The notes beneath the pieces were generated by a model. It saw nothing but the letters and a program-made list of their open reading frames with translations, was not told the origin of the DNA and made no database searches. A stretch of DNA of 49,858 bases, from UHGV virus genome UHGV-0134932. One strand, 5' to 3'. Both the position numbers and the translations under genes were made by a program. Source of the DNA: a virus. Below, in pieces: positions 20,813 to 23,371 of this stretch; the stretch's first letter is position 1, and each line of letters starts with the position of its first letter.

Positions 20813-21514
20813 TTATTCTGAAACTTGCTCAAAAAACGAGCTGGTAAGGGGAATCCAATCCTCTGACACTTCGCGAGGTCGCGGTTTGCCGTGGAAAAAG
20901 ATTATTCGGCAGTCTTTTGGTAATGCCCCATTCCCCCTGGAGTAACGCGCGCTCGCATATTTCGAACCAGGTTCCACAACATCGGCCTTGTAACTTACAA
21001 ACCATCCCGGATACAGATCCTGAAATGCTGGTGTATCATCACCCATAACCTTCCGCAAAAACCCCTGATCACCCCAGCATTCAGTAGTAACACAACGAGC
21101 AATCCAACCTTCCGGATCTTGCCAGAATGCACTCCAGATATGCGCTTTTACACTATTTGGTATCCACAGGGCACCGCTGCCACGATATTGTGGATGGTAA
21201 AAATCCCTAAGCATGGTGAAGTTGGTTGGTGGATTCTCTAGGATTGGGCGTATATCACCGGCAATAACCGTGTCCAAATCCAGATAGAACAGATCATCGG
21301 TTATATCCGGTCGGAACAACTCGATTTTCGCCCACCAGCCACGGCACTTTTGCCACTGGTTGATCAATGGGATAACTTTGACGCCAGGTACATGTAAACG
21401 CTTCAGGTCTGTCAGGCAAATAATTTCATAGTCTTTTGGCAGTTGATTAACCAGCCACTGCACATCGGAAGCGTTATAGTCACCACCAGAGCGAAGAACT
21501 AAAGCAATCTTCAT
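20813..21514 (-). CDS. Putative GT-A-type glycosyltransferase-like protein (DxD-like YLDLDT motif)
   Basis: 233 aa; N-terminal beta-alpha-beta-like start [13 protein letters not shown] and DLD motif; 4-bp overlap with the upstream phosphatase gene. Confidence 0.45.
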
Positions 21515-22203
21515 GCTGCACCATCACCTTTCACTTTCTTCAATGTCAGGTTTCCGCAAAATACGGCACCTGTGTCGATATAATGCTGATTCCAGAATGT
21601 CTTCGGGCTTTTCACCGGAGTGTGACCAAAGATAAAACGATCTGCGCCCGAAATTTCGCCACCAATATCATCCATCGAATCACTGATACGCTCGCGCGCC
21701 CAGACAACGTTGAAAAGCGGCACCTCCTTACCGAATTGATATTCATTATCCGGATAGTCGGCATGGGCTATAACGATAGTTTCTTGCCCGGTGTTCAACT
21801 CAATGATATAGGGCAGTCGTCTTACCAACTCCACCAGCGCCCTGGCTAATATTTCCTGATCAGCGTCCAGCATGAAGAACCATTGACCGCCATTCATTAG
21901 CCAGTTATTCACGTTGCCATCAGGACTTAACGCATCGAGCATCAACAGCTCATGGTTCCCCACTACTGCCCTGAACCAGGGCATCTGCAATAGTTCCAGA
22001 GATTCGACATTTTCAGTACCGCGATCGATAAGGTCGCCGACCGATATCAGTAAATCCTGCGCCGGGTCAAAATCCACACGATGGAGTTCGGACATCAGTC
22101 TGGTGTAGCAACCATGCAGATCACCAACAACCCAGACATTCCTGTATTTGGTACCGTCGATACGGTGATAAATTGTGGGTGCCATCATGTATTCTTCAGC
22201 CAT
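21511..22203 (-). CDS. ppp: Ser/Thr protein phosphatase of the lambda-PPase/calcineurin-like metallophosphoesterase family
   Basis: GDLHGC, GDLIDRG and GNHE metallophosphatase signature motifs. Confidence 0.85.
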
Positions 22204-22811
22204 TCTTTAAGAGTCATCTGCGGAATACCTCCCATTTTCCCGCATGAAACAACGTCAATCTGTTCACGCGCAGACTGGAATAACAAAGGCAGGTGACTTA
22301 GATTTTTTGGCGTGCCGCCGGAGTGAACGCGTAGTTCTTGCGTAGCGTCAACGCCCACCAGGGCTACATGTTTGAATCCGATATGGAAAGCCAGGTTCAG
22401 AGCACCATATGCACTATTGCCGCTGGCAATTTCATTCTCATCTTCGCAAAGGCCGAAATGTGCGGACCAGCGCCACGCCCACCACTCGGGAGAATTCGTA
22501 TTTTTTGGCTCTGTGCCGCGTTCAGCCACACGACGGAAGCACAGAATGCCGTCTCTGACTTCACGTTCTTTAACATCGGGTAGTGCCATGCAATAACAAA
22601 CACCACGGCGACGGCGGCCACGACCAACGCGCCGCATATTGTCTGGCGATGGATCAAGTGTGAAAAAATAAGAAGCGCGGTTAAGCCAGTCGATAGCCCC
22701 ATTGACCGCTATAATCGGCACTCCGCGCGGCGCAACAAAGTTTGCGGCGCTTGGGCCACTGCCGACGATAATAACGCGATCACTGCCTCTAAATTTATTC
22801 TTGGGAAACAT
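22185..22811 (-). CDS. Rossmann-like GSGPS-motif protein (DUF115/MptE-like fold suggested), paralog of the upstream gene
   Basis: [10 protein letters not shown]...IIAVN...[26 protein letters not shown]; shares motif order with ORF 22709-23371. Confidence 0.5.
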
Positions 22812-23371
22812 TGAATTGCACTGCTCCTACTTGCATTCAAAATATGTAAATCTGCGTGTTTTTTGCGGGTATCCAGGAACTGCTGTTGCCATTTTGAAAT
22901 AGACACCTGCGTTGGATTCCGTAGGGCTTGAGGGTGCGCGCCATGCCAATGAAGGCCGTTTTGCAGAGAACAGTCATAGCCGACTAATACCACTACTTCA
23001 GCCCCTGATTCAGCAGCCAGACTGATAGCCTGCGCGCCGCTATTTACCCCTTCCGCCGGTCCACAATATCGCCTGTACTCCAACGAAAATGATTTCGCCG
23101 CCGCCAGGTTGGCTGTCACTTTGCGGAACCTCCCTCCCGGTATGGTGGAACCGTATTGCTTCCACCATGACAAATCACCGGCGTATAAGGCATAAATGTC
23201 ATCGAACATCAGCCAGGAATTGTTAACCGCAATGATTGAACAGCCAGTTTTTTCTATAGCAGCACAGTCCTCACGAGTGAGTGACGGACCGCTACCGACA
23301 CAAAAAACAGTCCTAGTCGCCCTGGGTGGTATGTTCATTCTCAGCTGCAAATTCAGCCTCCAGGCGAGCAT
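22709..23371 (-). CDS. Rossmann-like GSGPS-motif protein, paralog of the downstream gene
   Basis: VFCVGSGPS...IIAVNN...NSGAQAISLAAESGAEVVVLVGYD. Confidence 0.5.
   Translation of the reverse strand: MLAWRLNLQLRMNIPPRATRTVFCVGSGPSLTREDCAAIEKTGCSIIAVNNSWLMFDDIYALYAGDLSWWKQYGSTIPGGRFRKVTANLAAAKSFSLEYRRYCGPAEGVNSGAQAISLAAESGAEVVVLVGYDCSLQNGLHWHGAHPQALRNPTQVSISKWQQQFLDTRKKHADLHILNASRSSAIQCFPRINLEAVIALLSSAVAQAPQTLLRRAECRL

Follow-up and report, generated by a model that had tools for sequence, protein, structure and literature searches.

A conserved PmgO-PmgP-PmgQ module with predicted glycosyltransferase folds in P1-type phages, and the insertion of ppp within it

Since the annotation of 2004, the pmg genes of phage P1 have been listed under the placeholder "putative morphogenetic function". 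We examined four genes of one P1-type operon, pmgO, pmgP, ppp and pmgQ, in the virus genome UHGV-0134932 (49,858 nucleotides, hereafter the window), where they occupy positions 20813-23371 on the minus strand. We propose that PmgO, PmgP and PmgQ constitute a glycosylation module expressed late in infection: a Maf/WaaZ-like pair would attach an ulosonic acid, most plausibly 3-deoxy-D-manno-oct-2-ulosonic acid (Kdo), and a GT8-type enzyme a hexose, with ppp as a passenger; we give this reading as a whole about an even chance of being right. The stretch 20513-24362 shares 98.1-98.2% DNA identity with P1 and 97.4% with P7, indicating a P1-type phage or phage-plasmid. An earlier reading of the letters alone (the original prediction) had described a four-gene cluster pairing a lambda-type phosphatase with a GT-A-like protein and two paralogous proteins, and its four open reading frames (ORFs) recurred with exactly the same limits in the ORF listing.

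The genes and rough family labels are already in databases, and what follows is not the discovery of a new element. P7 hdmB, hdmC and hdmD, the counterparts of pmgO, pmgP and pmgQ, are annotated as "head morphogenesis"; automated labels call PmgO "alpha-2,3-sialyltransferase" and PmgQ "glycosyltransferase", and the newest PGAP annotation names one ORF as Maf-family. Our literature searches, which also covered capsid and virion glycosylation and Maf/DUF115 proteins in phages, found no functional study of pmgO, pmgP or pmgQ.

Results

Predicted folds of PmgO and PmgP

The genes pmgO (P7 hdmB; 22709-23371, minus strand; 220 amino acids) and pmgP (P7 hdmC; 22185-22811, minus strand; 208 amino acids) encode two putative glycosyltransferases resembling Maf, MptE and GT42 (DUF115), and PmgP is the most conserved member of the module. 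The two proteins were barely significantly similar by BLASTP (E 0.003); comparison of their family profiles with hhalign gave a probability of 98.1% and an E value of 1.1e-13 over 164 columns. They are true, old and distant paralogs. The order of motifs from which the original prediction had deduced a duplication is thus real and far beyond chance, although one of its elements, NSGxxA, does not hold for PmgP, which has N-S-A-Y-G-A-L at this place. Its guess of a DUF115/MptE-like family was right as well: this was the only family matched in Pfam (PF01973), and its threshold is passed by relatives of the two proteins (44.6 bits for the C-terminal domain of P0044, a natural PmgO-PmgP fusion, and 44.1 bits for P0330), several homologues carrying a precomputed PF01973 match.

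Searches of the PDB with the single PmgO and PmgP sequences returned only noise, so that family profiles were required, and the PmgP profile alone found no match there by sequence; NCBIfam contained no model for PmgO, PmgP, PmgQ or PmgN. A MAFFT alignment placed both families on the C-terminal domain of the O-P fusion, and AlphaFold models were therefore built of PmgO and PmgP separately. The best matches of the models were the Maf flagellin glycosyltransferase, MptE and the sialyltransferase Cst-I, with SteA, thiamine pyrophosphokinases and mammalian sialyltransferases lower on the list, and both models displayed the Rossmann-like alpha/beta fold common to Maf, MptE and GT42, aligning with 160-162 residues of the 632-residue Maf chain. 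A fold search of BFVD found nothing beyond uncharacterised "MptE-like" phage proteins. The joint O+P profile matched Cst-II in HMMER (whole-sequence E 0.005) on the N-terminal GxGPSL loop and on (T/N)SG...A..LG...I.L.G.D, stretches that form the CMP (cytidine monophosphate)-binding site of Cst-II. Invariant residues occur in the same order in both families (D66, S111 and D133 in PmgO; D53, S133 and D155 in PmgP), and each family also has invariant histidines (H141 and H143, within HWHG, in PmgO; H173 in PmgP); the catalytic histidine of Cst-II is His188. In Maf (5mu5), the catalytic acidic residues are E324 and D415, together with a conserved Ser (bioRxiv 10.1101/2020.06.03.131540). In addition, Escherichia coli WaaZ, the Kdo III transferase of lipopolysaccharide (LPS), itself scored on the Pfam MptE-like family (6.9e-7), and a faint precomputed match to PF27901 (WaaZ_KDO_III) was present on the fusion P0044. 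Judged from sequences and models, PmgO and PmgP would be minimal catalytic cores (about 190-200 amino acids) of the Maf/WaaZ/GT42/MptE superfamily and putative enzymes. The transferase members of this MptE-like superfamily all use CMP-activated 2-keto-3-deoxy sugars.

Several details of these proteins were noted in passing. The annotated start of pmgO (23371) is probably too far upstream, given that homologues start near M12 (ATG at 23338) and residues 1-20 of the model have low confidence. The last approximately 20 residues of PmgO are unconserved and are the source of the long overlap with pmgP (103 nt as annotated; 40 nt in the relative L123), which the original prediction did not mention. 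Four PmgP relatives of approximately 400 amino acids (P0404, P0420, P0429 and P0430) have a C-terminal second domain with faint MptE-like similarity, which may be a further diverged fused paralog. The RefSeq name "norphogenetic protein" on relatives of PmgO and PmgP is a propagated typing error.

PmgQ resembles GT8 transferases

The last gene of the operon, pmgQ (P7 hdmD; 20813-21514, minus strand; 233 amino acids), encodes a protein that, as a single sequence, had no Pfam match at E ≤0.1, Glyco_transf_8 included, and found only a match at 0.23 in the PDB. When 62 homologues were combined into a profile, the PDB search returned the Skp1 alpha-galactosyltransferase 6mw5 (E 2.7e-8), glycogenin entries (approximately 1.6e-6) and a bacterial GT8 enzyme (5.9e-5), and PmgQ matched PHROG 1962, "glycosyltransferase", at 3e-126. 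The DxD-like motif that had been predicted for this gene (D79-L-D81, within Y-L-D79-L-D81-T) is invariant in the 62 homologues and aligned with the DxD of 6mw5 and glycogenin. K63 is also invariant, and G148-D-Q(-G) and H208-G-x-P-x-P (H208-G-K-P-R-P in PmgQ) are nearly so, all aligning with GT8 signature residues; a conserved N-terminal V-L-R-S-G-G motif is the family's own. These alignments agree with the GT-A-like protein proposed originally and point to a GT8-like (glycogenin-type) DxD transferase. The PDB matches were protein-directed GT8 enzymes (Skp1 galactosyltransferase and glycogenin), with no chain of a GT8 directed at LPS or lipo-oligosaccharide (LOS) listed; a direct hhalign comparison of the PmgQ profile with E. 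coli WaaJ, a GT8 of LPS, gave a probability of 49% over 150 columns. Some Salmonella homologues of PmgQ are labelled "phosphohydrolase", a name probably carried over from the adjoining ppp.

Co-inheritance and natural fusions of PmgO, PmgP and PmgQ

To follow the trio beyond P1, 183 PmgP-encoding loci were collected from species-representative genomes, IMG/VR and metagenome assemblies and scanned with a hidden Markov model (HMM) of each protein; clustering of PmgP at 90% identity gave 38 lineages. An initial scan of viral contigs had yielded P1-like loci only and was rerun with a distant first sequence. PmgQ was encoded within 1.2 kb of PmgP in 36 of the 38 lineages, the remaining two being contigs shorter than 3.1 kb, and PmgO was found in 30, with one further lineage in which it is fused to PmgP. 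Eight lineages also had a fourth, GT-A-like protein (approximately 190 amino acids, weak Nucleotid_trans match).

When 1.84 billion representative proteins were searched exhaustively by profile, 612 clusters were recovered, among which were natural fusions of PmgO to PmgP (P0044), of PmgP to PmgQ (P0292 and P0362) and, in the reverse order, of PmgQ to PmgP (P0369). Further fusions joined PmgQ, PmgP and an S-adenosylmethionine (SAM) methyltransferase (P0343), or a methyltransferase and PmgP (P0373), and none of those found included the phosphatase. Free-standing methyltransferases (Methyltransf_23 and FkbM) and a GT2-like protein were intercalated in some loci, accessory enzymes of the kind expected of a glycan-building module. 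The co-inheritance of the three genes, the shuffling of their order and their fusion in both orders indicate that PmgO, PmgP and PmgQ act together as a functional unit. For these three genes the small modification pathway of the original prediction is thus supported, as a glycosylation pathway.

The hosts ranged from Enterobacterales, Pseudomonas and Zhongshania to Alphaproteobacteria, Methylophilaceae and one Bacteroidota metagenome-assembled genome, and every named host was Gram-negative. GenBank phages with the family likewise had Gram-negative hosts only, including the hosts of Xanthomonas and Stenotrophomonas jumbo phages. In the loci carrying Pfam tables, we found no genes for nucleotide-sugar synthesis, and therefore the donors are expected to be housekeeping sugars of the host; no flagellin or nonulosonic-acid synthesis genes were found in these loci either.

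Insertion of ppp at the pmgP/pmgQ junction

Between pmgP and pmgQ lies ppp (21511-22203, minus strand; 230 amino acids), whose product matched Pfam Metallophos at 56.2 bits (cut-off 21.5; 8e-15) and a NinI-like PHROG at 3e-109, in agreement with the lambda-type metallophosphatase first proposed. The translation contains GDLHG, GDLIDRG and GNHE, corresponding to GDxHG, GDxxDRG and GNHE, and Ppp is by these motifs an ordinary Mn-dependent Ser/Thr phosphatase of the lambda NinI/PrpA type with all motifs of the phosphoprotein phosphatase (PPP) family. It scored 273.5 bits (1.6e-81) on NCBIfam PRK11439, for which the cut-off is 326, and 239.2 bits on the second PrpA/PrpB model, for which it is 332; it is a homologue of PrpA and PrpB and not an equivalog.

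The phosphatase gene was next to the trio in only 5 of the 38 PmgP lineages, all of the P1 lineage. Phage D6, a relative of P1, has a ppp gene of 89% DNA identity in a lambdoid nin-type context, without any gene of the trio. The original prediction had proposed a comparison with the neighbours of P1 ppp, and this comparison does not sustain the inclusion of the phosphatase in the pathway, its pairing with the trio being confined to the P1 lineage. Several P1-like phage-plasmid contigs that lack ppp keep the same flanks, with a PmgM-like VRR-NUC gene on the upstream side and a gene the size of pmgS on the downstream side; in these contigs pmgP and pmgQ are directly adjacent. In three of these loci (L123, L125 and L126), the ATG of pmgQ is embedded in the last codons of pmgP (DNA AAAGAATGGCTAAAAAAC; PmgP ends ...KEWLKN*). 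In the window, the equivalent ATG, in the matching context AAAGAATGGCTGAAGAATAC, starts ppp instead, and pmgQ restarts at an ATGA overlapping the ppp stop. The junction in L123, L125 and L126 shows that the ATG of ppp corresponds to the ancestral ATG of pmgQ. In the P1 lineage ppp was thus inserted only a few codons behind the start of the ancestral pmgQ, and took over from it both the start codon and the translational coupling; the short N-terminal extension of Ppp derives from this captured start. Thus, ppp lies outside the conserved module and is, even in P1, probably a lineage-specific passenger that is simply co-expressed.

Genomic settings of the module

Several IMG/VR contigs, as well as HK97-type prophages of Pseudomonas, Zhongshania, Ochrobactrum and Methylophilaceae, have the module between the genes for the major capsid protein and the head-tail connector, and in other loci it follows terminase or portal genes. 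In Citrobacter phage phiNP it has the lysis cassette on one side and terS on the other, and in a lambdoid prophage it is flanked by antiterminator Q and the holin gene. All of these phage settings are late-transcribed regions.

In bacterial chromosomes, five Pseudescherichia species retain the intact trio interleaved with an inverse autotransporter gene and several Big_1/invasin-type genes, and in Serratia plymuthica PmgO is encoded beside two signal-less Big_1 proteins, with PmgQ-PmgP within a holin-endolysin unit. Such an arrangement was noted in Enterobacterales chromosomes, where the PmgQ-PmgP pair lies inside a holin-endolysin-spanin-like unit resembling a lysis cassette or type 10 secretion (L106 1674-4118 and 7712-10102; L103 2236-18532; L100 and L108 around 7700-10600) and PmgO is encoded 4-5 kb away, beside signal-less Big_1-domain proteins or an inverse autotransporter. 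One IMG/VR locus (L117, IMGVR_UViG_3300001580_000025) encodes at 5939-7714 a portal protein (PF06381, 4e-109) with a fused C-terminal Acb1 nuclease (PF23474, 1.3e-29) directed against the cyclic-oligonucleotide-based anti-phage signalling system (CBASS), a fusion that could deliver an anti-defence enzyme with the virion.

Organization and regulation of the operon

The four genes share one orientation and are joined by overlaps of 103 nt (pmgO/pmgP, as annotated), 19 nt (pmgP/ppp) and 4 nt (ppp/pmgQ, ATGA), the last two as originally given. There is no convincing intrinsic terminator within the pmgO-pmgP-ppp-pmgQ unit. Neither of the two outcomes named at the outset as fatal to the prediction, families foreign to transferase chemistry or genes that are not co-transcribed, was encountered. 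The operon begins with the small gene pmgN (23313-23468, minus strand; 51 amino acids from a GTG start), assigned through coordinate transfer from the P1 annotation. The only sigma-70-like site within 20400-24500 is the promoter-like GCGACA-17-TAAAAT (P1 PpmgN; 23532-23560, minus strand), which lies within the 3' end of pmgM. Beside PpmgN, transfer of P1 coordinates places the C1 operator Oppp/Op83 at approximately 23512-23528, where an operator-like sequence is visible; this site upstream of pmgN was missed by a C1 consensus scan at ≤3 mismatches, being more diverged (>3). Downstream, the C1 operators Op86b/Op86a of P1 and the promoter PpmgR (20746-20811; operator matches at 20746-20762, plus strand, and 20795-20811, minus strand) open the next operon, pmgR-pmgS-pap, and set the downstream limit of the pmgN-pmgQ operon. 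Because the unit is flanked by C1-operator-controlled promoters and lacks an internal terminator, the operon is repressed by C1 in the P1 lysogen and expressed on induction. Across the whole window, the C1 operator consensus had 13 matches at ≤3 mismatches, compared with 0.23 expected by chance, in line with the C1 regulon of P1, which is likewise dispersed.

In a genome-wide CRISPR interference (CRISPRi) screen, pmgO, pmgP, ppp and pmgQ were non-essential for plaque formation, and they were likewise non-essential in a single-gene deletion library, as cited in a table of the same paper (PMC10695390); the in-frame deletion phages are itemised in the supplement of PMC9024508. For pmgN, CRISPRi scored the gene as essential, yet its in-frame deletion is viable (PMC10695390, PMC9024508), which points to polarity or to an effect of the knock-down at the RNA level. 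HMM matches to pmgN were confined to P1-lineage loci.

Among the neighbouring genes, the next operon consists of pmgR (20513-20731), pmgS (19249-20511) and, last, pap (18670-19176). Pap, a second phosphatase, is a HAD-family protein; despite its name, its match is not to a classical acid phosphatase but to the phosphatase domain of polynucleotide kinase-phosphatase (PF25109, 6e-12). On the other side, PmgM (23530-24114) has a sub-threshold VRR-NUC nuclease domain (21.2 bits; cut-off 23.8) and PmgL (24117-24362) a weak treble-clef zinc-finger match; neither appears morphogenetic. At least 80% of the 2.56-kb cluster (20813-23371) was present in 552 of 5426 complete E. coli genomes, and 780 of the 796 places matched were on plasmids; a subset of the records matches the ppp part only, at 83-90% identity.

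Discussion

We propose the following course of events for the module. During lytic growth, PmgO and PmgP would work as a pair, probably a heterodimer, and transfer an ulosonic acid that the host provides in CMP-activated form. CMP-Kdo is the one CMP-ulosonic acid made by Gram-negative bacteria in general, and the only such donor in E. coli K-12. PmgQ, as a GT8-type, metal-dependent (DxD...H) retaining transferase, would then add a hexose from a uridine diphosphate (UDP)-sugar, and in other phages the extra GT-A/GT2 enzymes and SAM methyltransferases could diversify the glycan. The product would be a small, non-essential glycan placed on a protein made late, most likely a virion (head) protein, and ppp would be co-expressed only by virtue of its insertion into the translationally coupled pmgP/pmgQ junction. 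A precedent for the first step exists: when produced in E. coli, Maf enzymes attach Kdo to Ser/Thr residues of flagellin (bioRxiv 10.1101/2020.06.03.131540).

It is the acceptor, above all, that we infer. A late-infection protein, most likely a virion head protein, is our tentative choice, to which we attach rather less than an even chance. It is favoured by the capsid-adjacent synteny and by the example of Maf, a cytoplasmic enzyme that acts on a self-assembling structural protein, as well as by the protein-directed activity of the nearest GT8 structures and the linkage of the chromosomal copies to adhesins. Several points weigh against this interpretation or parts of it. In P1 itself the operon lies outside the head-gene cluster, and capsid-adjacent sites commonly gather unrelated accessory genes too. 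No glycan has been reported on P1 particles, two recent P1 cryo-electron microscopy papers mention none, and the 2022 paper on the P1 virion proteome does not discuss these genes. For the enzymes, the Pfam matches of PmgO (22.6 bits) and PmgP (20.9 bits) to MptE-like/DUF115 fall below the gathering threshold of 34.6 bits. Their fold also includes pyrophosphokinases (MptE and thiamine pyrophosphokinase), they are without Maf's flagellin-binding domains, and their invariant D, S and D residues are no more than candidate counterparts of its catalytic residues. In hhalign, WaaZ aligned weakly with the PmgO and PmgP profiles, at 12-13% probability (E 0.002) and over no more than the LG...G.D motif, and GT8 and WaaZ relatives act on LPS as well. 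The sole O-P fusion was encoded on a single metagenomic contig, where it might reflect a frameshift artefact.

The main alternative is a modification of the host LPS core during lytic growth, in which a WaaZ-like Kdo pair and a GT8 of the WaaO/WaaJ family would alter the P1 receptor and so spare the progeny from debris or block superinfection; P1 adsorbs to glucose of the LPS core. WaaZ belongs within the MptE-like superfamily and leaves its faint trace on the O-P fusion, the PmgQ profile can be aligned with WaaJ, the hosts are all Gram-negative, and several copies of the module lie in or beside lysis cassettes. With an hhalign probability of only about 12%, however, WaaZ is probably not a close relative, the top structural match is the protein glycosyltransferase Maf, and the top GT8 matches are protein-directed, with none of the listed chains acting on LPS or LOS. 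Moreover, the LPS cores of its hosts, which range from Bacteroidota to Alphaproteobacteria, differ greatly, the module occupies late/head operons rather than the vicinity of the integrase, where conversion genes usually sit, and its chromosomal copies are interleaved with adhesin genes. We consider LPS unlikely to be the target. That all four genes form one pathway, with Ppp dephosphorylating, for example, an intermediate or the acceptor, is improbable. In the P1 lineage the 19-nt and 4-nt overlaps couple the genes translationally, an arrangement shared by P1, P7, SJ46 and relatives from Pantoea and Salmonella with PmgP identities as low as 72%; however, Ppp is missing from 33 of the 38 PmgP lineages, among them P1-like phage-plasmids whose flanking genes are the same, D6 carries ppp in a nin-type context and lacks the trio, the junction is that of an insertion reusing the pmgQ start codon, the phosphatase enters into no fusion, and its homologues (lambda NinI, E. 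coli PrpA/B) are protein Ser/Thr phosphatases.

The remaining alternatives take the module away from proteins and lipids, towards the nucleic-acid or nucleotide modification that the original prediction had also entertained and that our results do not favour. With MptE-like proteins as the sole match in Pfam, PmgO and PmgP might pyrophosphorylate a small molecule or nucleotide in the manner of MptE or thiamine pyrophosphokinase, PmgQ acting on the product, but their motifs align with the CMP-sugar site of Cst-II and their constant partners are GT-A, GT8 and GT2 transferases and sugar-type methyltransferases, not folate or thiamine genes; we regard this as quite improbable. Glycosylation of phage DNA against restriction seems to us very improbable indeed. 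P1 DNA is cut by ordinary restriction enzymes and P1 relies on its Dar proteins, which weakens this explanation, and no Maf-like or GT8 enzyme is known as a DNA glycosyltransferase. Phage glycosyltransferases that hypermodify DNA are known (bioRxiv 10.1101/2023.12.21.572611), and a DNA methylase gene lies a few kb off in some loci; genes for hydroxymethyl-pyrimidines or other base activation were not seen beside the module in the loci examined.

According to our literature searches, several features have not been described so far: the trio as a conserved, mobile and sometimes fused module across phages of many Gram-negative phyla; its architecture of two minimal Maf-like paralogs and a GT8, unlike every characterised glycosylation system; its ties to late/head genes and, in bacteria, to Big_1 adhesins; and ppp as a precisely mapped insertion, a clean example of operon capture by reuse of a neighbour's start codon and translational coupling. 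In its boldest form, our hypothesis is that P1 and many temperate phages of Gram-negative hosts use the Maf/WaaZ-like heterodimer and GT8, with CMP-Kdo and UDP-hexose from the host, to build a small Kdo-containing O-glycan on capsid or tail proteins, the same module acting on Big_1 adhesins where bacteria have domesticated it; we hold this full version to be doubtful. If it is true, no earlier virion-glycosylation system would be on record for phages of Gram-negative hosts, and Ser/Thr-O-Kdo would be found to occur naturally. P1 has been a workhorse of E. coli genetics for sixty years, and approximately one in ten complete E. coli genomes carries the cluster on a P1-like phage-plasmid; a coherent, widely mobile module takes the place of a vague annotation and is testable now, as single-gene deletion phages exist. 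Were the acceptor a virion protein, P1-derived vectors for phage therapy or transduction would carry a surface glycan that could affect antibody recognition, stability and host range, and were it LPS, the module would be a receptor-editing device. Minimal Maf-like enzymes, possibly using CMP-Kdo, would also serve protein glyco-engineering in E. coli.

The components of the operon can each be compared with known systems. Ppp shares the Metallophos fold and PPP motifs of lambda NinI and E. coli PrpA-PrpB, with 64% identity to the lambda phosphatase according to the P1 record; unlike NinI, it is encoded within a glycosyltransferase operon instead of the nin region, has an N-terminal extension and scores below the NCBI equivalog cut-offs. 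Maf proteins (Magnetospirillum, PDB 5mu5; Geobacillus/Clostridium) are cytoplasmic, as predicted for PmgO and PmgP, but they have about 630 amino acids with N- and C-terminal flagellin-binding domains, whereas PmgO and PmgP have about 200 amino acids and none of these domains, share only 15-16% identity with Maf, form two diverged paralogs tied to a GT8 and are not encoded near flagellin or nonulosonic-acid genes. The GT42 enzymes Cst-I and Cst-II of Campylobacter and WaaZ (GT73) contain the GxGPS and (T/N)SG...LG...G.D motifs in the same order as PmgO and PmgP; they act on lipo-oligosaccharide at the membrane, and their sequence tie to PmgO and PmgP is marginal (E 0.005 for Cst-II). Glycogenin and the Skp1 alpha-galactosyltransferase (6mw5), which are soluble, cytoplasmic and protein-acting, align with PmgQ in K, DxD, GDQG and H-x-x-G-x-x-K-P; PmgQ differs from those GT8 enzymes in falling below every Pfam model, in its length of about 230 amino acids and in its own N-terminal motif. 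A parallel in phage biology is the virion glycosylation of mycobacteriophages. Their enzymes reportedly decorate capsid and tail proteins, glycosylation that Freeman and colleagues are said to have shown by mass spectrometry in 2023; the enzyme families are said to differ from those of the trio and the hosts to be of the Gram-positive type. For the putative P1 module the parallel is one of position, the trio lying among head genes in relatives of P1. Both are phage-encoded glycosyltransferase sets, and the mycobacteriophage enzymes are reportedly dispensable for growth, as are PmgO, PmgP and PmgQ.

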